This document shows, in pieces, positions 928 to 11,233 of a DNA stretch of 33,224 nt; the first letter of the stretch is position 1, and every line of letters starts with the position of its first letter. Under the pieces are notes generated by a model that was not told the DNA's origin, did not search any database, and was given only the letters and a program-made list of their open reading frames with translations. The stretch lies in assembly GCA_040900015.1 (NCBI GenBank), contig JBBDZS010000023.1, positions 25,023 to 58,246 of the forward strand, read 5' to 3'. The position numbers and the translations under genes were made by a program. Origin of the DNA: Minisyncoccota bacterium. Its GTDB lineage: Bacteria > Patescibacteriota > Minisyncoccia > Phycocordibacterales > UBA9973.

Positions 928-3897
928 ATGAGTTCTGTTTTCAAGGAGGAGTATAAAAAGCTAAATAGTGCCCAGAAGGACGCCGTCAATTCTTTAGAGG
1001 GCCCGATAATGGTGGTGGCTGGTCCCGGCACGGGTAAAACCCAAGTGCTCGCTCTCCGTATTGCCAATATTCTAGAGAAGACCGATATAAAAGTAGACGG
1101 AATTTTATGTCTCACTTTTACTAATTCCGGCGTGGAAGCGATGAAAGATCGCTTGCGTTGTTATATAGGCGAAGCAGGGAACGAAGTAAATGTTTTTACC
1201 TTTCACGGTTTCGGGATGAAAATCATCGGAGAGCACTATAAAGTCCTAGGTCTTAATGAAGCACCGGAACTTTTGGAGGATACTGACCGAGCGATATTTT
1301 TTGATCAAATAATTAATGAAAATGATTGGCAGCACTTGCGTCCGCGTGGTAACAACATGCGATATTTTCAAGATCTCAAATCTCTAATTTCTCTTTTGAA
1401 GCGGGAGAGAATTTCCATAGAGGATTTTGAAGCGGGAATAGAAAAAGAAATAAATTATTTGGAGCGAGACGAAAGTAGCCGTTCGACCAGAGGAGCGAGC
1501 AAGGGCCAGCTGAAAAAAGAAGCACTAAATGCCATAGATGGGCTAAAACGAAGCAGGGAGATAATAAAATTTCTGAGGCTTTATGAAGACACAAAAAAAG
1601 AAAGGAATCTTATGGATTATGATGATGTTTTGGAGTCGTTGGTCTATATTGTGGAAAATTCCGACGATGCCGTTTCCTCGGTCCGTGAGAGATACCTATA
1701 TGTTCTTATAGACGAACACCAAGATTCTTCGCGCGTGCAGAACGAATTCCTGACCCGAGTGTGGGCCTCTGTAGAGCGGCCGGATATTTTCGTGGTCGGA
1801 GACGATCGGCAGCTTATATATGGTTTTTCTGGAGCTTCCATTGAGTATTTTGCAGGTTTCAAAAAAACCTTCCCGGATGCCAAGCTTATAACTCTTACTG
1901 ACAATTATCGTTCGACGCAGGTAATTTTAGATGCTTCTCATGCATTATTGGAGAGCGTATTAACCAAAGATAAACTAGTTAGCCAAAACAAAGAAAAGCA
2001 CCCCATAGAACTAGTAGATACAGAAACGCCGGAAGAAGAAATTGTTGCTGCTGCGCAAGATATTAAGTTGAAAATTTCCGCCAAAGGCGGATCCGCCTCT
2101 GGCGGAGAAAAATCCCTGAATCCAAACGACATCGCCATACTTGTGCCCAAAAATCGTCAGGTGCGCACGGCTATGGAGATATTACACAATGAAGGCGTGC
2201 CGGTCGGAGGGCTAGAGGCTCTTAGTCTTTTCGATCAAGATGAAACCTTAGCACTAATGCGGGTATTAAAAGTTATTAATAACGGAGATGTCGCCTCATT
2301 AGCGATGTCTTTTTTTGATAAAACCTCAGGTATAACACCTCTAGAAGCACACCAGTTTATAAGCAAAGAAAACATGCGTCAATTCTCTATTGAGAAAATT
2401 AGCGGAAAGTCTCTGACTCTTTTCCCTTCGGACAATAACGCAGAAAAATGGATTGCAAAACTTTTAAAATGGAAAAGTGATTTTGAAAATAATAATATGC
2501 AAAAGGACTTGAAATCCTTAATCCAGATGGTCGGTAAAGAATTACTTGAAGGGAAGGAAATAGAAAAAAAACTTGTTTCCGGAAAAATAATTTTGGACAC
2601 CGTGACTGATCTTTTCTCAAAGCAAGAAGAAAAAAATCCAGACATTACCATCGGTTGGTTTTTGGAATATTTAGAGAGGCTGGTTTCTTCGAATGAGTAT
2701 ATACCACTACTTGCCCCTTCTGGTGAAGGCGTCAAAGTGCTTACCATGCATTCTTCCAAGGGATTGGAATTCGATTATGTCTGGATAGCCCATATGGACG
2801 AGAAGTCCCTCTCAGGTGGTAGGCGTATGGGCCTGACCTTACCTGAGAGCATCGCGGAGAAGGTGGAAGAGCGCGACATTGATGCTATTAAGCGCAAGCT
2901 ATATGTGGCCATAACCCGGGCCAAAAAGTTTTGCAGGCTATCTTATTCCCGCGAGTCAGTCAAAGGGAGCGAACAGGAGCTCGCTAAGATAATTGCGGAA
3001 TTGCCGTCCGAAGTTTTCGAGAAGGTGAGCATAAGTGCCGGTAAGAAAAGAATTATTAAAAATACAAATTTACCTAAGCTACTAAAGTTGGTCGCAGATA
3101 AGTATAAAGATAGGTATGTCTCGGTATCACTTCTTAATAATTTTTTCGAATGTCCCTGGAAATGGTATTTTGAAAATTTACTACAGATGCCCAAGGATAA
3201 AATCGAAGTTCTCGAGTTTGGCATTGTAGTCCACGCGTCGATTGATAGAATATTAAAAATGAAAGATATTCCATCCGAGGAAAAAGTCGAGGATATAGTC
3301 ACGGAAGAAGTTTTAAGGCGGGAGTTTGGAGATGCCAGGGGTCGAGTGCGGATGGGTAGAGAAATTATAAATATTGTTTCATCCTGGGTTGAGAATCGTC
3401 TTCCAGAAATAAAGCTTAGCCGTAAGACCGAGGAGAGTATAACTGTAAATAATTCCGATTATCCCCATCTCAAAATTTATGGCAAGATTGACTTGATTGA
3501 AAACTTAACTGGAAAAGAAGCCAGAGAAGTAAGAGTGACAGACTTCAAAACCGGGAGCGTGCGAAGAAAGTCCGAAGTTGAGAAACTGGATGAGGAGGGC
3601 AGAATGAGTGGAAACTTAAGACAGCTGGCTATGTATTCGTATCTCCTGCGAGAGAATCCTAAATGGCGAGTGGATGCGAGAGAGAGCCGACTAGAATTTC
3701 TGGAAGAGAAGGATTTTGATAAGCGTATTTATAACACGGTGATAACGGTGAGAGAAATAGAGTTACTTAAGAAGGATATTAAGGACTACGATGAACTGGT
3801 AAAAAGCGAGGATTGGATAAATAGAGAGTGTCACTACAATTCCTACGGCAGAGGCACCGAATGCGAGTATTGCCAACTCGCAGAGATTTATAAATAA
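928..3897 (+). CDS. UvrD/PcrA-family SF1A helicase with C-terminal PD-(D/E)XK nuclease domain
   Basis: AGPGTGKT, LTFTN, LIDEHQD, VGDDRQLIYGF, NYRS, TMHSSKGLEFD and LYVAITRAK. C-terminal SVS..FECP, GKIDLIE, TDFKTG, QLAMY and a Cys cluster. Confidence 0.9.
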   Translation: MSSVFKEEYKKLNSAQKDAVNSLEGPIMVVAGPGTGKTQVLALRIANILEKTDIKVDGILCLTFTNSGVEAMKDRLRCYIGEAGNEVNVFTFHGFGMKIIGEHYKVLGLNEAPELLEDTDRAIFFDQIINENDWQHLRPRGNNMRYFQDLKSLISLLKRERISIEDFEAGIEKEINYLERDESSRSTRGASKGQLKKEALNAIDGLKRSREIIKFLRLYEDTKKERNLMDYDDVLESLVYIVENSDDAVSSVRERYLYVLIDEHQDSSRVQNEFLTRVWASVERPDIFVVGDDRQLIYGFSGASIEYFAGFKKTFPDAKLITLTDNYRSTQVILDASHALLESVLTKDKLVSQNKEKHPIELVDTETPEEEIVAAAQDIKLKISAKGGSASGGEKSLNPNDIAILVPKNRQVRTAMEILHNEGVPVGGLEALSLFDQDETLALMRVLKVINNGDVASLAMSFFDKTSGITPLEAHQFISKENMRQFSIEKISGKSLTLFPSDNNAEKWIAKLLKWKSDFENNNMQKDLKSLIQMVGKELLEGKEIEKKLVSGKIILDTVTDLFSKQEEKNPDITIGWFLEYLERLVSSNEYIPLLAPSGEGVKVLTMHSSKGLEFDYVWIAHMDEKSLSGGRRMGLTLPESIAEKVEERDIDAIKRKLYVAITRAKKFCRLSYSRESVKGSEQELAKIIAELPSEVFEKVSISAGKKRIIKNTNLPKLLKLVADKYKDRYVSVSLLNNFFECPWKWYFENLLQMPKDKIEVLEFGIVVHASIDRILKMKDIPSEEKVEDIVTEEVLRREFGDARGRVRMGREIINIVSSWVENRLPEIKLSRKTEESITVNNSDYPHLKIYGKIDLIENLTGKEAREVRVTDFKTGSVRRKSEVEKLDEEGRMSGNLRQLAMYSYLLRENPKWRVDARESRLEFLEEKDFDKRIYNTVITVREIELLKKDIKDYDELVKSEDWINRECHYNSYGRGTECEYCQLAEIYK
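2077..2106. repeat. 30-nt double-hairpin element, copy 1 (in frame, SAKGGSASGG)
   Basis: TCCGCC-AAA-GGCGGA-TCCGCC-TCT-GGCGGA; identical to 6769-6798. Confidence 0.95.
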
Positions 3898-6219: not shown

Positions 6220-8328
6220 ATGGCAAAAGATAAAGAAGGCAAAGGCGGGCATCAATATGACGCATCGGATATATCGGTTTTAGAGGGCCTGGAACCCGTC
6301 AGGAAGCGTCCTGGGATGTATATTGGTACGACGGGCCCGGAAGGTCTGCACCACCTTGTTTGGGAGATTTTCGACAACTCACGCGACGAAGCAATGGGTG
6401 GTTTTTGTGATGATATTGAGGTGGTGTTATTGCCTGGCAATAGGGTTCGGGTAGCGGACAATGGCCGAGGTATCCCCGTAGATATGCACAAGAAGACCAA
6501 GGTCTCAGCGCTCGAGACGGTGATGACGACTCTCCATGCCGGAGGAAAATTCGGCGGTGAAGGATATAAAGTTTCTGGAGGTCTGCACGGAGTAGGTGCT
6601 TCGGTGGTCAACGCACTTTCTATTTATTGTCGGGCCGAAGTGCATCGAGATGGTGGCAGGTATGTGCAGGAATATTCTCAAGGTAAGAAGAAATTCGCAG
6701 TCAAGAAAGTCGCTGCATCCAAGAATCACGGAACAATAATAACTTTCGAACCTGACCAGGAAATTTTTTCCGCCAAAGGCGGATCCGCCTCTGGCGGAAA
6801 AGATGATGGGATCAAGTTTGATTGGAACACTATCGTCGCTCACATCCGCCAGCAGGCGTATCTGGTAAAAGGATTACGCATTTCTATAATCGACGCCCGC
6901 GAGTGGCAAAGCGGAAAAGGTTTGACCGAGGAGGATGTATTTTATTTCCGGGAGCTCGGGCTCGAAGTTCCATCAGTATCTTTCTATTTCGAAGGCGGAC
7001 TGATATCCCTCGTGAAGTATTACAATAAGTTCCAAAAGCCTATACAAGATCATATTTTTTATGTGGAAAAAGAAATGGATGGAGTGGGGGTTGAGATAGC
7101 GCTCCAATATGTGGACGATATTGTAGATAGGATATTTCCTTTTGCAAACAATATTTTTACCGCAGAGGGTGGCACTCATGTGACTGGATTTAAAACCGCG
7201 CTCACTCGAACCCTCAATACTTATTGTAAGAAGAATGAAATGATGAAGGAGTCCGAAGGGGGATTTACTGGCGACGATGTGCTCGAGGGTCTTACCGCCG
7301 TTATCTCGGTCAAGCTTCAGGAAATACAATTCGAAGGCCAGACCAAGGGCAAACTCGGCTCTATGGAGGCGCAGGGTGCAGTGGCGACCATCTTCGGTGA
7401 GGCCTTTACTAGTTTTCTAGAGGAGAACCCCGACGAGGCGAAATCTATAATAAACAAATCAATACTAGCTCTTAAGGCGAGAAAGGCAGCCAAGGCAGCT
7501 AAGGATTCCGTGCTTAGGAAGGGCGCACTCGAAGGTATGACTCTCCCGGGCAAACTGGCAGATTGTCAGTCGAAAAGTGCAGAAGAATCCGAATTATTCC
7601 TTGTAGAGGGAGACTCCGCAGGAGGCTCCGCCAAACAAGGCAGAGATAGGAGAACCCAAGCGATACTTCCGCTCCGCGGAAAGATATTGAATGTGGAGAG
7701 AGCTCGCATCGACAAGATGCTCGCATCGAAAGAAGTACGGTCTTTGGTTATAGCTATGGGAACATCGATCGGAGACACCTTCGATATTTCCAAGGTTCGC
7801 TATCATAAGATAATAATCGCCACGGATGCGGATGTGGACGGTTCGCATATCCGTACGCTTTTACTTACTCTTTTTTATAGATACTTCCGTGAAGTTATCG
7901 ATGCAGGATATATTTACATCGCCCAGCCACCGCTATATAAGATTAAGAAGGGCAAGGAGATATCTTATGCATATACTGACGAAGAAAAGGTAAAGATCAT
8001 CGGCAAGGGCGCGGATGTGAGTGAGATTCAGGAAGCTGAAAGTCCCGAACAAAGTGAGGGATTAGAAACCGAAAGAGAGGAGGCGCCTGAAGAAGTCGCA
8101 AAAAAGGCAAACAAAATACACATCCAGCGCTTCAAAGGTCTCGGAGAAATGAATCCGGAAGAATTGTGGGAGACGACCATGGATCCTGCGCACAGAGTGC
8201 TTAAGAAAGTAAATATTGATGATGCCGAAGAGGCGAATAAAGTTTTCGATATTCTCATGGGCTCCGAAGTTCCTCCTCGAAAGTCCTTTATTCAATCAAA
8301 CGCTAAATTGGCGGAAATTGATATCTAG
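6220..8328 (+). CDS. gyrB: DNA gyrase subunit B
   Basis: LEGLEPVRKRPGMYIG, DNGRGIP, LHAGGKF, SGGLHGVG, LVEGDSAGGSAK, PLRGKILN, TDADVDG and QRFKGLGEMNP. Confidence 0.97.
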   Translation: MAKDKEGKGGHQYDASDISVLEGLEPVRKRPGMYIGTTGPEGLHHLVWEIFDNSRDEAMGGFCDDIEVVLLPGNRVRVADNGRGIPVDMHKKTKVSALETVMTTLHAGGKFGGEGYKVSGGLHGVGASVVNALSIYCRAEVHRDGGRYVQEYSQGKKKFAVKKVAASKNHGTIITFEPDQEIFSAKGGSASGGKDDGIKFDWNTIVAHIRQQAYLVKGLRISIIDAREWQSGKGLTEEDVFYFRELGLEVPSVSFYFEGGLISLVKYYNKFQKPIQDHIFYVEKEMDGVGVEIALQYVDDIVDRIFPFANNIFTAEGGTHVTGFKTALTRTLNTYCKKNEMMKESEGGFTGDDVLEGLTAVISVKLQEIQFEGQTKGKLGSMEAQGAVATIFGEAFTSFLEENPDEAKSIINKSILALKARKAAKAAKDSVLRKGALEGMTLPGKLADCQSKSAEESELFLVEGDSAGGSAKQGRDRRTQAILPLRGKILNVERARIDKMLASKEVRSLVIAMGTSIGDTFDISKVRYHKIIIATDADVDGSHIRTLLLTLFYRYFREVIDAGYIYIAQPPLYKIKKGKEISYAYTDEEKVKIIGKGADVSEIQEAESPEQSEGLETEREEAPEEVAKKANKIHIQRFKGLGEMNPEELWETTMDPAHRVLKKVNIDDAEEANKVFDILMGSEVPPRKSFIQSNAKLAEIDI
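6769..6798. repeat. 30-nt double-hairpin element, copy 2 (in frame, SAKGGSASGG)
   Basis: Identical to 2077-2106; the flanking T-run and A-run extend the outer stem. Confidence 0.95.
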
Positions 8329-8330
8329 TT

Positions 8331-8864
8331 ATGAAAATTAACGTTGGGTCAAAAAATATCACTAAAATTGAGGCTGTTAAAGAAGCATTCAATGAATTTC
8401 CTAATTTTACTAATTCAACTGTTGTGGGTGTAGAAGTAGATTCTGGGGTTCATAAACAACCAAAAAGTATTGATGAAACAGTACAAGGCGCAATGAATAG
8501 AGCTAAAAGTGCTTTTAATGATTGCGACTTGTCTGTGGGATTAGAAAGTGGGCTTATCGTAGTTCCTAATACTAAAAGTGGTTATATGGATATAACCATG
8601 TGCGCTATTTATGATGGTAAGGTTTTTCATTTAGGTGGCTCTTCGGCTTTTGAATATCCAAAATCAATGATTGATCTAGTTTTCAGTAAAGATTATGACA
8701 TTAGTGAAGCAGCTAAAGCCGTCGGTTTCTCTCATGATGACAATCTTGGCGAAAGAGAAGGGATGATAGGTGTTTTAACAAAGGGAAAATTAAACAGACA
8801 AGGGTACAGCAAGCAAGCAGTTATTACAGCACTTATTCATTTACTAAACCCTGAACATTACTGA
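8331..8864 (+). CDS. yjjX: Non-canonical purine NTP (ITP/XTP) phosphatase, YjjX/DUF84 family
   Basis: VGSKN..KIEAV, SGVHKQP...ET.QGAMNRA, VGLESG and G.IG.LT.G...R. AT-rich codon usage. Confidence 0.85.
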   Translation: MKINVGSKNITKIEAVKEAFNEFPNFTNSTVVGVEVDSGVHKQPKSIDETVQGAMNRAKSAFNDCDLSVGLESGLIVVPNTKSGYMDITMCAIYDGKVFHLGGSSAFEYPKSMIDLVFSKDYDISEAAKAVGFSHDDNLGEREGMIGVLTKGKLNRQGYSKQAVITALIHLLNPEHY

Positions 8865-8899
8865 GAATGATTAGATTATTTCTTAGCCTCACATCAATT

Positions 8900-8923
8900 T
8901 ATACTATGATATATCGTAGTATA
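8900..8923. repeat. 24-bp palindrome downstream of the TrpR-like gene
   Basis: TATACTATGATATATCGTAGTATA; one mismatch from perfect dyad TATACTACGATATATCGTAGTATA. Confidence 0.9.
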
Positions 8924-8939
8924 AGATTATTTACTTTAT

Positions 8940-9353
8940 TTACTCAAAATCTTTAAATATTTTCTTCCAACGACCTCGTCCTGCTTTAGGGTGTAATGTT
9001 CCACCAGCTGTAAGTAGAAATTCAATTAAATCTAAAACCCCTTTTTGCTTTTTGTTTGCAATTTTTAGAATTATATTGTATTTACCATTCTCAATATTTA
9101 GTGACGTCTTTGCCACCGTTGAAGGGCTTACGCGTAATATATCAACAATACGGTGCTGTGGGATCTCTTTACTTAGGAGAAGTATTATTGCAAGTCGCTT
9201 AGATAGCATTATCTTTTCAGTATAGGTAAAAAGCTCTTGAAACAGAGGATATAAATCGTTGTCTTCTGAGGCCTGCCCGAAAGTGGAAAGTAGCTTTTTG
9301 TTTAATTTATTAAGAGTTTCTTTCTTAAGTTTTTTACTAGAAACGTGAGGCAT
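8940..9353 (-). CDS. TrpR/YerC/YecD-like helix-turn-helix protein
   Basis: LFTYTEKIMLSKRLAIILLL...HRIVDILRVSPSTVAK matches the TrpR/YerC pattern LxTxxE...xxRL.I...L + HTH (S.ST..R/K). Confidence 0.7.
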   Translation of the reverse strand: MPHVSSKKLKKETLNKLNKKLLSTFGQASEDNDLYPLFQELFTYTEKIMLSKRLAIILLLSKEIPQHRIVDILRVSPSTVAKTSLNIENGKYNIILKIANKKQKGVLDLIEFLLTAGGTLHPKAGRGRWKKIFKDFE

Positions 9354-9362
9354 ATATTATAT

Positions 9363-9386
9363 TATACTACAATATATCGTAGTATA
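9363..9386. repeat. 24-bp palindrome overlapping the TrpR-like gene promoter (putative operator)
   Basis: TATACTACAATATATCGTAGTATA; overlaps minus-strand TATAAT (9361-9366), which lies 7 nt from ATG 9353. Extra half-site ATATCGTAGTA at 9391-9401. Confidence 0.9.
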
Positions 9387-9415
9387 GTAAATATCGTAGT
9401 ACAGTAAATTGTGAC

Positions 9416-11158
9416 TTATTTCCGATTTTTTATTTCTTCAGTTAGTTTAGTTATCAATTCTTCTTTAGACATCTGCCCAAGCTGGCCAGCATCTCTGGAC
9501 TCAAGAGTTACTTTTCCTGCTTCTATTTCTTTGTCTCCAATAACTATCCAATACGGGAGCTTGTTGTTCTTAGCATCTCTAACTTTACCTCCGAGGTTGC
9601 CGTCTTTGTCATCGAGCTCGGCGCGGATGCCTGCATTAGTGAGCATTTCAAAAACCTCTTTTGCATATTCATTATGATTTTCACGAACAGGGATTACTTT
9701 TACTTGTACCGGAGCAAGCCAGAGGGGAAAGTTTCCGGCTGTGTGCTCGATTAAGATGGAAAGGAACCTGTCTATGGAGCCCATAATAGCGGCGTGGAGC
9801 ATCACGATTCTTTCTTGTTCACCTTTTTCGTTTATACAAAAAAGATCAAATCGTTCCGGCTGATTCATATCCATTTGGATGGTTGCCACTTGCCACTCTC
9901 TTCCGATTGCGTCTTTGGCCATGAAGTCTAGCTTCGGCCCGTAGAAGGCCGCCTCGCCAACTCCCTCGAACCAGTCCACGTTCTTAGAGGTGACTATTTC
10001 TCTAAGTGTCGTCTCCGCATGTTCCCATTTATCCGCTCCACCTAAATACTTTTCAGGCTCTTTTGGGTCGCGGATGGACAGGCGGACTCTTAAAGAAAAA
10101 CCGAAAGCATTATAAAAATCCTGCACTATGTCCCAGACTTTTAGGAATTCTTCCTTTACCTGCGACATTCGGCAGAACACGTGCGCATCGTCTTGGGTAA
10201 AGCTTCTTACTCGGGAAAGTCCGGAGAGTTCACCTGACTGTTCGTCGCGGTAGCAGGTGGTGCTGTTGCAGTATCTTTGTGGGAGTTCTTTGTAGCTCCA
10301 CTGTTTACGGTCGTATATCTGGGTGTGGTGCGGACAGTTCATTGGCTTCATTGCGAACTCGTGTCCTTCGCGGGTTGTGATCCGAAACAGCTCGTCTTTA
10401 AACTTATCCCAGTGTCCGCTTTTTTCGTAAAGGTCTTTTTTGGTTATATGAGGTATTTCTACTTTGACATAACCTCTCTTTTCGCGGAGCTCCCAGACGA
10501 AATCATCAAGAAGATTCCTCAGAATCGTACCTTTCGGCGTCCAGAGAGGAAGGCCGCTTCCTACCAATTCGGAGAATACGAAAAGGTCGAGCTCCTTACC
10601 TAATTTTTTATGATCTCTTTTTTCTGCCTCTTCTCTTTGTGTTAAATACGCATCTAGCTCTTCCTTCGTTTCAAAAGCTAGTCCGTAAACACGGGTAAGC
10701 ATTTTATTCTTCTCGTCTCCGCGCCAGTAGGCTCCGGCCACGCGGTCGAGCTTGAAGGCATCTGCCTTAATCTCGCTCATATCTTCCGTATGTCCGCCCT
10801 TACACAAGTCCCAATAATTTCCAGACTTGTAAAAAGATACTTTTGATCCATCCTTGGTAAATTCATCAATCAATTCGTGTTTGTACGGATTGTCAGGATA
10901 TTCTTTCTTGGCCTCGTCGGCAGATAGCTCTGACCGTTCGAAGGTTTTCCAAGAAGGAAGTATTTTACGCATCGTCTTTTCGATTTTAGGTAAGTCAGTG
11001 TCAGAGATAGGGGAAGAGAACTCAAAGTCGAAATAAAAGCCGTTGTCTATGGCTGGTCCGATGGTGCGTTTGGTGTCCGGATAAAGCTCCATCACAGCCG
11101 CCGCCAGCAGATGGGCAAGCGAGTGTCTAAGATTGGCCAATTTCTCTGTCTTTTCCAT
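9416..11158 (-). CDS. thrS: Threonyl-tRNA synthetase lacking the N-terminal TGS domain
   Basis: RHSLAH, DLCKGGH, RDHKKLG, KPMNCPHH, RVRSFTQDDAH and AFYGPKLD. Start moved to ATG 11158, which follows TATAAT at 11165-11170 by 6 nt. Confidence 0.95.
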   Translation of the reverse strand: MEKTEKLANLRHSLAHLLAAAVMELYPDTKRTIGPAIDNGFYFDFEFSSPISDTDLPKIEKTMRKILPSWKTFERSELSADEAKKEYPDNPYKHELIDEFTKDGSKVSFYKSGNYWDLCKGGHTEDMSEIKADAFKLDRVAGAYWRGDEKNKMLTRVYGLAFETKEELDAYLTQREEAEKRDHKKLGKELDLFVFSELVGSGLPLWTPKGTILRNLLDDFVWELREKRGYVKVEIPHITKKDLYEKSGHWDKFKDELFRITTREGHEFAMKPMNCPHHTQIYDRKQWSYKELPQRYCNSTTCYRDEQSGELSGLSRVRSFTQDDAHVFCRMSQVKEEFLKVWDIVQDFYNAFGFSLRVRLSIRDPKEPEKYLGGADKWEHAETTLREIVTSKNVDWFEGVGEAAFYGPKLDFMAKDAIGREWQVATIQMDMNQPERFDLFCINEKGEQERIVMLHAAIMGSIDRFLSILIEHTAGNFPLWLAPVQVKVIPVRENHNEYAKEVFEMLTNAGIRAELDDKDGNLGGKVRDAKNNKLPYWIVIGDKEIEAGKVTLESRDAGQLGQMSKEELITKLTEEIKNRK

Positions 11159-11233
11159 ATAAGAATTATAATAGCACACTTTTCCCTATGCAAAAATTGC
11201 TTTTCGAACGCAATATGCTAGTATATGGACATT

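Follow-up and report, generated by a model that had tools for sequence, protein, structure and literature searches.

In Escherichia coli, the known regulon of the repressor TrpR lies elsewhere in the genome. Pairs of operators that act by looping have been described for lambda CI with OR and OL, for lac with O1, O2 and O3, and for gal with OE and OI. Single genes set between short repeated sites are familiar from the RAYT genes flanked by REPs (repetitive extragenic palindromes) and from the Xer-dependent pdif modules, the flanking sites of the latter being common to all modules of a host, since one host recombinase reads them. Within the TrpR family, HisR (YerC of Bacillus subtilis) is the histidine repressor of Firmicutes and other phyla; its operators are 20-bp palindromes with a consensus that differs by lineage, and it is autoregulated, a site being present before hisR in 183 genomes, according to the excerpted account of the system (PMC9413887). 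This article deals with a gene of the same superfamily in a 33,224-nucleotide stretch of DNA from a Minisyncoccota bacterium (contig JBBDZS010000023.1, positions 25,023 to 58,246 of the forward strand), hereafter called the window. The gene encodes a small helix-turn-helix (HTH) protein and stands between two copies of one 24-nt near-palindrome, an arrangement which, taken as a whole, is probably that of an autoregulated repressor with two operators. A second copy that regularly follows the stop codon departs from what textbooks describe for TrpR-type repressors, and a full-text literature search turned up no publication dealing with such a bracket or with the TrpR-like proteins of these bacteria.

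Positions are given below in the coordinates of the window, which is part of a 504-kb genome in 23 contigs (G000) with an estimated completeness of 88%. The initial annotation had described an AT-rich gene bracketed by two palindromes, each one base away from the same dyad, and the letters bear this out. Each 24-mer has a single mismatch to the perfect dyad TATACTACGATATATCGTAGTATA, and the upstream (U) and downstream (D) copies agree at 22 of 24 positions. D begins 16 nt past the stop codon, U ends 9 nt before the ATG, and the gene has a GC content of 34.3%, the window as a whole one of 42.7%. At up to three mismatches the 24-mer matches the window only at U and D, compared with a mean of 0.00 in 100 dinucleotide shuffles. 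The whole genome holds four matches at up to five mismatches, and none of 60 order-5 Markov genomes held any match at up to four. Read in the orientation of the gene (...gtagTATAATataatatATG), the final 4 nt of the upstream palindrome are also the initial 4 nt of a TATAAT hexamer, the overlap already reported; such a placement would imply a leaderless or very short-leader mRNA. The additional half-site seen farther upstream is an exact copy of ATATCGTAGTA and could be a site for a further, cooperatively bound dimer; at up to one mismatch, this 11-mer occurs six times in the window against 0.38 expected. The downstream copy sits in a convergent intergenic region of 75 nt.

Is this bracket a peculiarity of one locus? 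One genome per species was scanned, yielding 77 loci, all from metagenome-assembled genomes with Paceibacterota/Parcubacteria-group and similar titles; three of them (L058, L079 and L088) were dropped, their start not being recognisable, and two (L068 and L069) are duplicates of each other. In the first seven relatives with complete flanks, from the same genus or order, every gene had a palindrome of its own on both sides, differing between genomes. Between the 150 nt upstream and the 200 nt downstream, 62 of 73 loci share a 20-mer with at least 18 identities; when the flanks of different loci were combined, this was so for only 17 of 219 mismatched pairs. Pairing of the best palindromes gave U and D copies that agree at 18 or more of 24 positions in 67 of 72 loci and at 20 or more in 54 of 72, so the paired palindromes that the initial annotation had proposed to look for beside homologues are indeed there. 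L021, L050 and L051 gave no candidate pair under the pairing thresholds, though their flanks share 18–19 of 20 nt. The two copies thus change in concert from locus to locus: identity between U and D stays at 0.7 or more out to ±13 and is at background beyond, which defines a shared element of about 26 bp. Its centre is usually ATATAT or GTATAC, while the arms vary. In the 67 paired loci the palindromes are centred at medians of −25 relative to the ATG and +32 relative to the stop codon. The distance between the two centres ranges from 419 to 774 bp (median 474, and 463 bp in the window). Several relatives (L063, L071 and L072) carry two to three full copies per side. In the genome of the window itself, a 45% identical paralogue (C4:6044-6439) has its own, different pair at C4:5975-6476. 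Judging from the flanks compared, the bracket is a trait of the gene family, which comprises 1,752 clusters at 50% identity (E ≤1e-10) in a profile search of 1.84 billion cluster representatives.

The palindromes also follow residues 77, 78 and 82 at the start of the recognition helix, a co-variation for which the initial annotation had proposed a test. Proteins with T..K at residues 78..82 go with TG at half-site positions 4–5 in 11 of 11 loci, those with A..R go with GA in 10 of 11, those with Q..R with CA in 4 of 5, and those with S..R with CG in 19 of 29. The T..K/TG pairing is found in two separate clades, that of the window and another within the large 'FRMSLKYDIGKY' clade. The window protein itself has SPST..K with CG, and a TG-type relative has SPTT..K. 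This tabulation was made without L041, whose two copies are of different types, and the half-sites of L021, L023, L032, L034, L050 and L051 were set by hand.

The protein itself deserves closer attention. That it is TrpR-like was the earlier reading, and a profile search agrees: Pfam Trp_repressor (PF01371) matches residues 20–97 of the 137 with 37.6 bits against a cut-off of 27, and a genome-wide search places the window gene and its C4 paralogue above that cut-off. It scores below the cut-offs of the two specialised NCBIfam models, namely TIGR01321, the trp operon repressor equivalog (23.2 bits, cut-off 67.25), and TIGR02531, YerC/YecD (19.2 bits, cut-off 42.2). With a profile of 74 relatives, E. 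coli TrpR is matched at E 0.05–0.1, and the solved YerC/HisR-type structures 3FRW, 3KOR and 3G1C have E-values of 5e-8 to 6e-7; direct profile alignment with E. coli TrpR (hhalign) gives a probability of 65% and E 6e-5. The AF2 model has eight helices and a mean pLDDT (predicted local distance difference test) of 82.6, the fold prediction being confident for residues 1–110. Its top Foldseek matches are all TrpR or TrpR-like (6F7F, 1TRR, 1TRO, 3G1C, 3FRW and 3KOR), with a probability of 0.97–1.0, a TM (template modelling) score on the target of 0.64–0.75 and E of at least 0.1. Searches of Rfam (E ≤1), PHROGs and PADLOC gave no match. Characteristic of the protein are a conserved N-terminus MPHVS, a recognition helix beginning with S76-P77-S78-T79, and a C-terminal extension of about 30 amino acids with a GRGRW motif. 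From these comparisons, it is a TrpR/HisR-superfamily HTH protein of a subfamily specific to ultra-small-genome (Patescibacteria-type) bacteria. The idea that the GRGRW tail, which has low pLDDT, might act as an AT-hook reading the AT-rich palindrome centre was rejected: relatives without the motif (such as L072–L077 and L087) keep the ATATAT centre.

In the hhalign alignment, residues 77, 78, 79 and 82 correspond to Ile79, Ala80, Thr81 and Arg84 of TrpR, at the start of recognition helix E. T43, R53, T79 and K/R82 align with T44, R54, T81 and R84 of TrpR and are at least 90% conserved or invariant among the 74 relatives. We take those four TrpR residues to be the ones that contact the corepressor, and since they have conserved equivalents here, a small amino-acid-like corepressor is likely. 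The ligand need be neither tryptophan nor histidine, because no match to indole-3-glycerol phosphate synthase (IGPS, trpC) or to His_biosynth (hisA/F) was found in this 88%-complete genome, a result that extends the earlier remark that the window holds no trp genes. The dyad symmetry of the sites, together with the family, suggests that the protein binds as a dimer, presumably the intertwined homodimer of the superfamily.

How would such a unit work? The palindromes are very probably the protein's own sites, and it is quite likely that both copies are functional. In the mechanism proposed, a dimeric HTH repressor would recognise the 24–26-bp palindrome flanking its own gene. Bound to the upstream copy, which lies over the presumed −10 box of a probably leaderless ATG, it would silence its own promoter, and could also halt read-through from thrS, the gene next upstream. 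The downstream copy would be a second operator closing the unit at its 3′ end, with a boundary made of a protein roadblock aided by an RNA hairpin, by which outside transcription would be excluded and the gene's own contained. As a result of this boundary, nothing but the protein's own feedback would set its level. Repression may be strengthened further if the two copies are joined in a cooperative loop. The features on which this description draws, and two further copies elsewhere in the genome, are collected in Table 1.

Table 1. Features at the bracketed TrpR-like gene (positions in the window) and two further copies of its palindrome (positions on other contigs of the same genome).
Feature	Position	Strand	Remarks
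Upstream putative operator copy (U), TATACTACAATATATCGTAGTATA	9363-9386		24-nt near-palindrome, centre 21 nt 5′ of ATG
Downstream putative operator copy (D), TATACTATGATATATCGTAGTATA	8900-8923 (26 nt as 8899-8924)		Centre 28 nt past stop
TATAAT, −10-like hexamer	9361-9366	−	Ends 7 nt before ATG; putative promoter element
Half-site ATATCGTAGTA	9391-9401		Exact; 17 nt from the same half of the full putative operator
TrpR/HisR-superfamily HTH gene, 137 aa, ATG start	8940-9353	−	Open reading frame (ORF) and family match
NTPase_I-T (YjjX-type ITP/XTPase) gene, convergent neighbour	8331-8864	+	PF01931, E 3.8e-43; GC at third codon positions (GC3) 23%
thrS, co-directional, directly upstream of the TrpR-like gene	9416-11179	−	Stop codon 29 nt from the upstream putative operator
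Putative operator copy, 22/24	C10:13578-13601 (L126)		Inside RVT_1 reverse transcriptase gene adjoining a bAvd gene (DGR-like, that is, like a diversity-generating retroelement)
Putative operator copy, 20/24	C7:29078-29101 (L127)		Inside M24 peptidase gene, near its start

What the downstream copy does is a question in itself. Of the 72 loci, 33 have a convergent neighbour downstream of the gene, 36 a co-directional one and 3 none. In the D copies, dyad symmetry runs to ±18, with positions 14–18 complementary in 0.49–0.67 of the loci against a background of about 0.3 (0.37–0.48 for the U copies), and the median arm length is 12 for D against 10 for U (Wilcoxon p = 0.015). This longer symmetry points to an added hairpin role, as RNA or as DNA, at the 3′ end. 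On the + strand, the window's D copy folds into a modest 11-bp RNA hairpin (−10.4 kcal/mol, z = −3.7) followed by a U-rich tract. The initial annotation had offered an autoregulatory loop or a roadblock. Its view of the palindromes as the protein's own operators is supported by the paired copies and their co-variation with the helix, while loop and roadblock are not separated by the data. A boundary or roadblock action can be put forward tentatively, a loop anchor is rather doubtful, and something other than boundary or loop is likewise on the doubtful side.

Several observations weigh against a two-operator, autoregulated repressor. Almost all of the clear sites lie around the gene itself, which makes for a regulator without obvious output, and a consensus promoter scan performed at chance level (4 matches against 3.9 expected). 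The helix code is not one-to-one for S..R, which goes with GA in 8 of 29 loci, every one of them from the 'MSYST' clade, where residue 77 is Tyr. Because a tree-aware test is weak (three to four independent pairs concordant and none discordant, p = 0.125–0.25, underpowered with so few contrasts), the co-variation of helix residues and half-sites is consistent with such a code but not proof of it. Gene conversion, rather than a common protein, could keep two copies alike. Nothing points specifically to termination: on the gene's own strand the RNA fold of D is weak (−8.0 kcal/mol, z = −1.4), and no canonical terminator was found at the site. Canonical terminators are present in 7 of 27 convergent spacers after the gene against 10 of 23 other convergent spacers of the same loci, and are thus not significantly rarer there. 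Within the 10-nt arms, D is the more perfect copy in 26 loci and U in 14, with 27 ties, a difference that is not significant (p = 0.08). Finally, the U–D distances show no helical phasing at periods of 10.0–11.2 bp (Rayleigh p ≥0.1); phasing is uninformative at such loop lengths, and its absence offers nothing specific in favour of a loop.

An alternative that we regard as very unlikely is that the palindromes are structural hairpins only, serving as terminators or mRNA-end hairpins of thrS, the TrpR-like gene and yjjX, alike through duplication or gene conversion, with the protein binding elsewhere or nowhere specific. The extension of the D symmetry past the shared core and the + strand fold with its U-rich tract would suit such hairpins, as would the lack of any other terminator-like hairpin in 20 of 27 convergent spacers after the gene. 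A terminator, however, needs no likeness to anything on the promoter side, yet the two sides match in the 67 pairs mentioned above; the upstream copy overlaps the presumed −10 box and keeps a constant distance to the ATG, the palindromes change with the recognition helix, and the stems are AT-rich, weak and without a canonical terminator. The paralogue speaks on both sides. Its palindrome is of the TATCATATATGATA type, that of the window unit being of the CTACGATATATCGTAG type, and one copy (C14:1243-1266) lies within a long hairpin with a T run, but the same site recurs about 21 nt before the ATG of two further genes (C17:10453-10476 and C22:18221-18244), a placement typical of operators. As read without a search, one of these genes is an ORF of 427 aa whose N-terminus looks HTH-like and the other a Cys-rich ORF of 426 aa; the copies suggest a small regulon of the paralogue.

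Still less probable is a mobile single-gene cassette, in which the palindromes would be terminal sites for excision or integration and the unit would move as such. The distribution of the gene does invite this idea. With the window protein as query, homologues were found in only 7 of 24 genus relatives. The thrS–gyrB interval is variable, and in 6 of 26 genus genomes it holds, no more than 1.1 kb past thrS, a TrpR-like gene belonging to one of two paralogue clades. The gene is patchy in the genus and its synteny is not stable. (The family profile, applied to five apparently negative genomes, found distant members in two, at E 5.6e-11 and 7e-10, and marginal matches in two, at E ~0.004–0.01.) Neighbours vary widely between loci. 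GC3 is 27.5% in the TrpR-like gene and 23% in the adjacent yjjX-like gene, against 48% in gyrB and thrS. In G041, a solo extended palindrome of 36 nt (L097 1490-1527) follows thrS and a 64-aa ORF, next to a canonical terminator, and a TrpR-like gene with the same operator type lies on a different contig.

Set against this, the protein has a TrpR-type HTH only, with transposase matches at E 0.06–0.07 and nothing in PHROGs or PADLOC; the four genomic copies form no REP-like population; and the palindromes differ between paralogues and follow the helix of their cargo, which fits poorly with a single host recombinase. The comparison with RAYT genes and REPs drawn in the initial annotation is therefore not sustained. 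Neither a clean empty site nor a solo palindrome, both of which it had thought worth seeking, was found in the closest relatives lacking the gene: in the four nearest by ThrS identity (G020, G004, G014 and G013), the gene is absent from the thrS site and no solo palindrome (at least 10 of 11 arm positions) follows thrS. The palindromes do not delimit the low-GC islet either, a 1.1-kb segment (8331-9400) that takes in yjjX outside the bracket. Low GC was also considered as a family-wide sign of mobility and rejected, the mean GC3 deficit of −0.068 (65 loci) being the same as the −0.065 of other small neighbouring ORFs (n = 24); only the window's copy deviates strongly. The contexts that recur among the 72 loci (thrS 8, GAPDH (glyceraldehyde-3-phosphate dehydrogenase) 7, gyrB 6, rpiB 5, and also dapF and argS) point to vertical descent with rearrangement. 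The islet itself was likely acquired recently, because its GC3 of 23–28% stands so far from the 48% of its neighbours, and horizontal movement of the unit by ordinary recombination is likely. The unit would thus be inherited and moved whole, and no sign of self-movement was seen.

Could the sites belong to some other factor, such as a nucleoid protein, another regulator, or an enzyme of restriction-modification or recombination, with the gene merely lying between them? Two observations lend this some colour: genes of a Cas2-like/PaaX_M family are also flanked by palindromes (C3:2541 and 2959; C1:32041), so that bracketing is not peculiar to TrpR-like proteins, and G014, which is 92% complete, has CGATATATCG-core palindromes in two genes but no family member by profile. 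The bracket, however, accompanies the TrpR-like family through many contexts with a sequence private to each paralogue, the association with the encoded helix would be hard to explain, and the palindrome of the Cas2-like genes is a different one, with a CTATAG centre, private to them; we consider such a factor highly improbable. Equally remote is the idea that the downstream copy serves as operator for an adjacent transcription unit belonging to the regulon and follows the stop codon by accident, for although the next gene is often co-directional and 20–120 nt past the palindrome (argS being 34–48 nt away in four loci), in the window and the other convergent loci there is no promoter for it to control, and the copy stays close to the regulator's own stop whatever the neighbour.

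With an autoregulated two-operator repressor as the preferred account, the copies of its palindrome inside other genes call for comment. Orthologues of the reverse transcriptase carry a palindrome of the CGATATATCG type at the same codons in 4 of 10 genus genomes, without change in length, three having arms like those of the window and one GGC/GCC arms; the other six orthologues have unrelated peptides of equal length at that stretch. Because the palindrome recurs at the same codons within a peptide stretch that otherwise varies, this copy suggests that selection acts on the DNA rather than on the protein. In G014, the palindrome AGGCGATATATCGCC occurs in the reverse transcriptase (L132) and in a 486-aa ORF (L149 957-978) which we take, unsearched, to be typA/bipA-like. 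Three relatives with the same operator type have the bracket only, plus a solo copy after thrS in one. It is rather improbable, though worth stating, that the self-insulating operator–gene–operator module also acts through roadblock sites inside coding regions. If it did, an amino-acid-like signal would be linked, in this genome, to an M24 peptidase and to a diversity-generating retroelement through the reverse transcriptase of the latter, and these organisms would regularly control genes by means of operators that form part of the coding sequence.

Other palindromes occur nearby. The initial annotation had linked the bracketed gene to a wider palindrome phenomenon in the window, a link that now looks doubtful: a GC-rich 30-mer in gyrB is unrelated and adds codons, whereas the copies of the operator inside genes replace codons and leave the length unchanged. 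This 30-nt palindrome (TCCGCC...GGCGGA) occurs twice, at 6769-6798 in gyrB and at 2077-2106 in a 989-aa ORF (928-3897). In gyrB it codes for part of SAKGGSASGGKDDG, a stretch that is shorter by 12 aa in the GyrB of a relative (L037 neighbour), and the palindrome looks like an in-frame palindromic insertion, a phenomenon distinct from the operator. A further 24-nt palindrome family, with ATTCTnnAGAAT as its core and arms that vary, has copies at 436-459 in the window and at C14:12807, C22:45872 and C5:1967; that of the window lies inside a 5′-open ORF (1-918), and that of C5 in the spacer before a gene. Elsewhere in the genome, a 128-aa PaaX_M/Cas2-like gene (C3:2541-2982) has at either end a 24-nt palindrome of its own, centred on CTATAG, and a paralogue of it after rpsG (C1:32041-32473) has the palindrome in front.

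As for the neighbouring genes, aminoacyl-tRNA synthetase genes are frequent immediate neighbours of the family (thrS, as the upstream neighbour, in 8 of 72 loci, argS in 4 and a glyS-like gene in 2, identities that are readings of cluster-representative sequences), exceeding the roughly 6% of loci expected at random, although the loci are not independent. In E. coli K-12 (L150 4761-5746), trpR and yjjX are convergent neighbours, as in the window. The NTPase_I-T neighbour is found in none of the 71 other related loci, and the common pairing may be a coincidence. In relatives, the slot beside gyrB is occupied by an ORF of 184–189 aa (MKPKL...VTGS...), presumably a HAM1-type inosine triphosphatase (ITPase), as read without a search; if that reading holds, the YjjX-type enzyme may have taken its place recently as a non-orthologous substitute.

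Almost nothing is known about gene regulation in the ultra-small-genome bacteria of the candidate phyla radiation. Each member of this family has its presumed cognate site written twice beside it, which would provide dozens of predicted repressor/operator pairs at once and, with helix residues 77, 78 and 82 set against half-site positions 4–5, a candidate recognition code. The second site at the 3′ end may illustrate a way in which feedback loops are insulated in compact genomes whose terminators are weak, and the copies inside genes suggest further targets, including a diversity-generating retroelement. As many of the pairs are mutually different, they could also serve as orthogonal parts for synthetic circuits.

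How, then, does the unit stand beside the systems described so far? With lambda, lac and gal it would have in common two sites for one repressor hundreds of base pairs apart, one of them on the promoter, and in lambda the repressor gene likewise lies between two operator clusters. The protein families are unrelated, however, and the auxiliary sites there take varied positions and are not regularly placed past the stop. Formation of tetramers or octamers is documented there. The present unit shows no helical phasing. RAYT/REP and pdif elements resemble it in having a single gene between two copies of a short imperfect palindrome, but the window protein is without an HUH/Y1 or recombinase domain and its palindrome, unlike REPs, has only 4 copies in 504 kb; unlike pdif sites, the palindromes differ between the two TrpR-like units of the genome and follow the cargo protein. 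The Cas2-like/PaaX_M genes, at two loci of the same genome, are alike in length (about 128 aa) and in having a private 24-nt palindrome before them and, at C3, also after; their fold (PaaX_M/Cas2) and palindrome centre are different.

The comparison is closest within the superfamily. The predicted fold of the protein matches that of E. coli TrpR, equivalents of T44, R54, T81 and R84 are conserved, and a putative palindromic operator lies over its presumed promoter, as the operator visible upstream of E. coli trpR does there. The protein nevertheless falls below the TrpR equivalog cut-off, in a genome with no trpC match, and the spacer after E. coli trpR holds, in place of a second trp operator, a repeated GC-rich inverted repeat which we take to be of REP type (no repeat search was run). 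HisR/YerC proteins are its closest solved relatives by sequence, and both are small stand-alone TrpR-type HTH proteins; the window protein differs in its MPHVS N-terminus and its C-terminal extension of about 30 aa, scores below the YerC/YecD cut-off, and is found in a genome without a His_biosynth match. Its operator core measures 24–26 bp against the 20 bp of HisR, and a second copy past the stop codon is the rule here, whereas none is encountered for HisR in the excerpted account (PMC9413887). By these sequence characters, the window protein and its relatives form a subfamily apart from HisR, extended at both the N- and the C-terminus; their operator is longer, and the chief difference is the second copy of it that regularly follows just past the stop codon.

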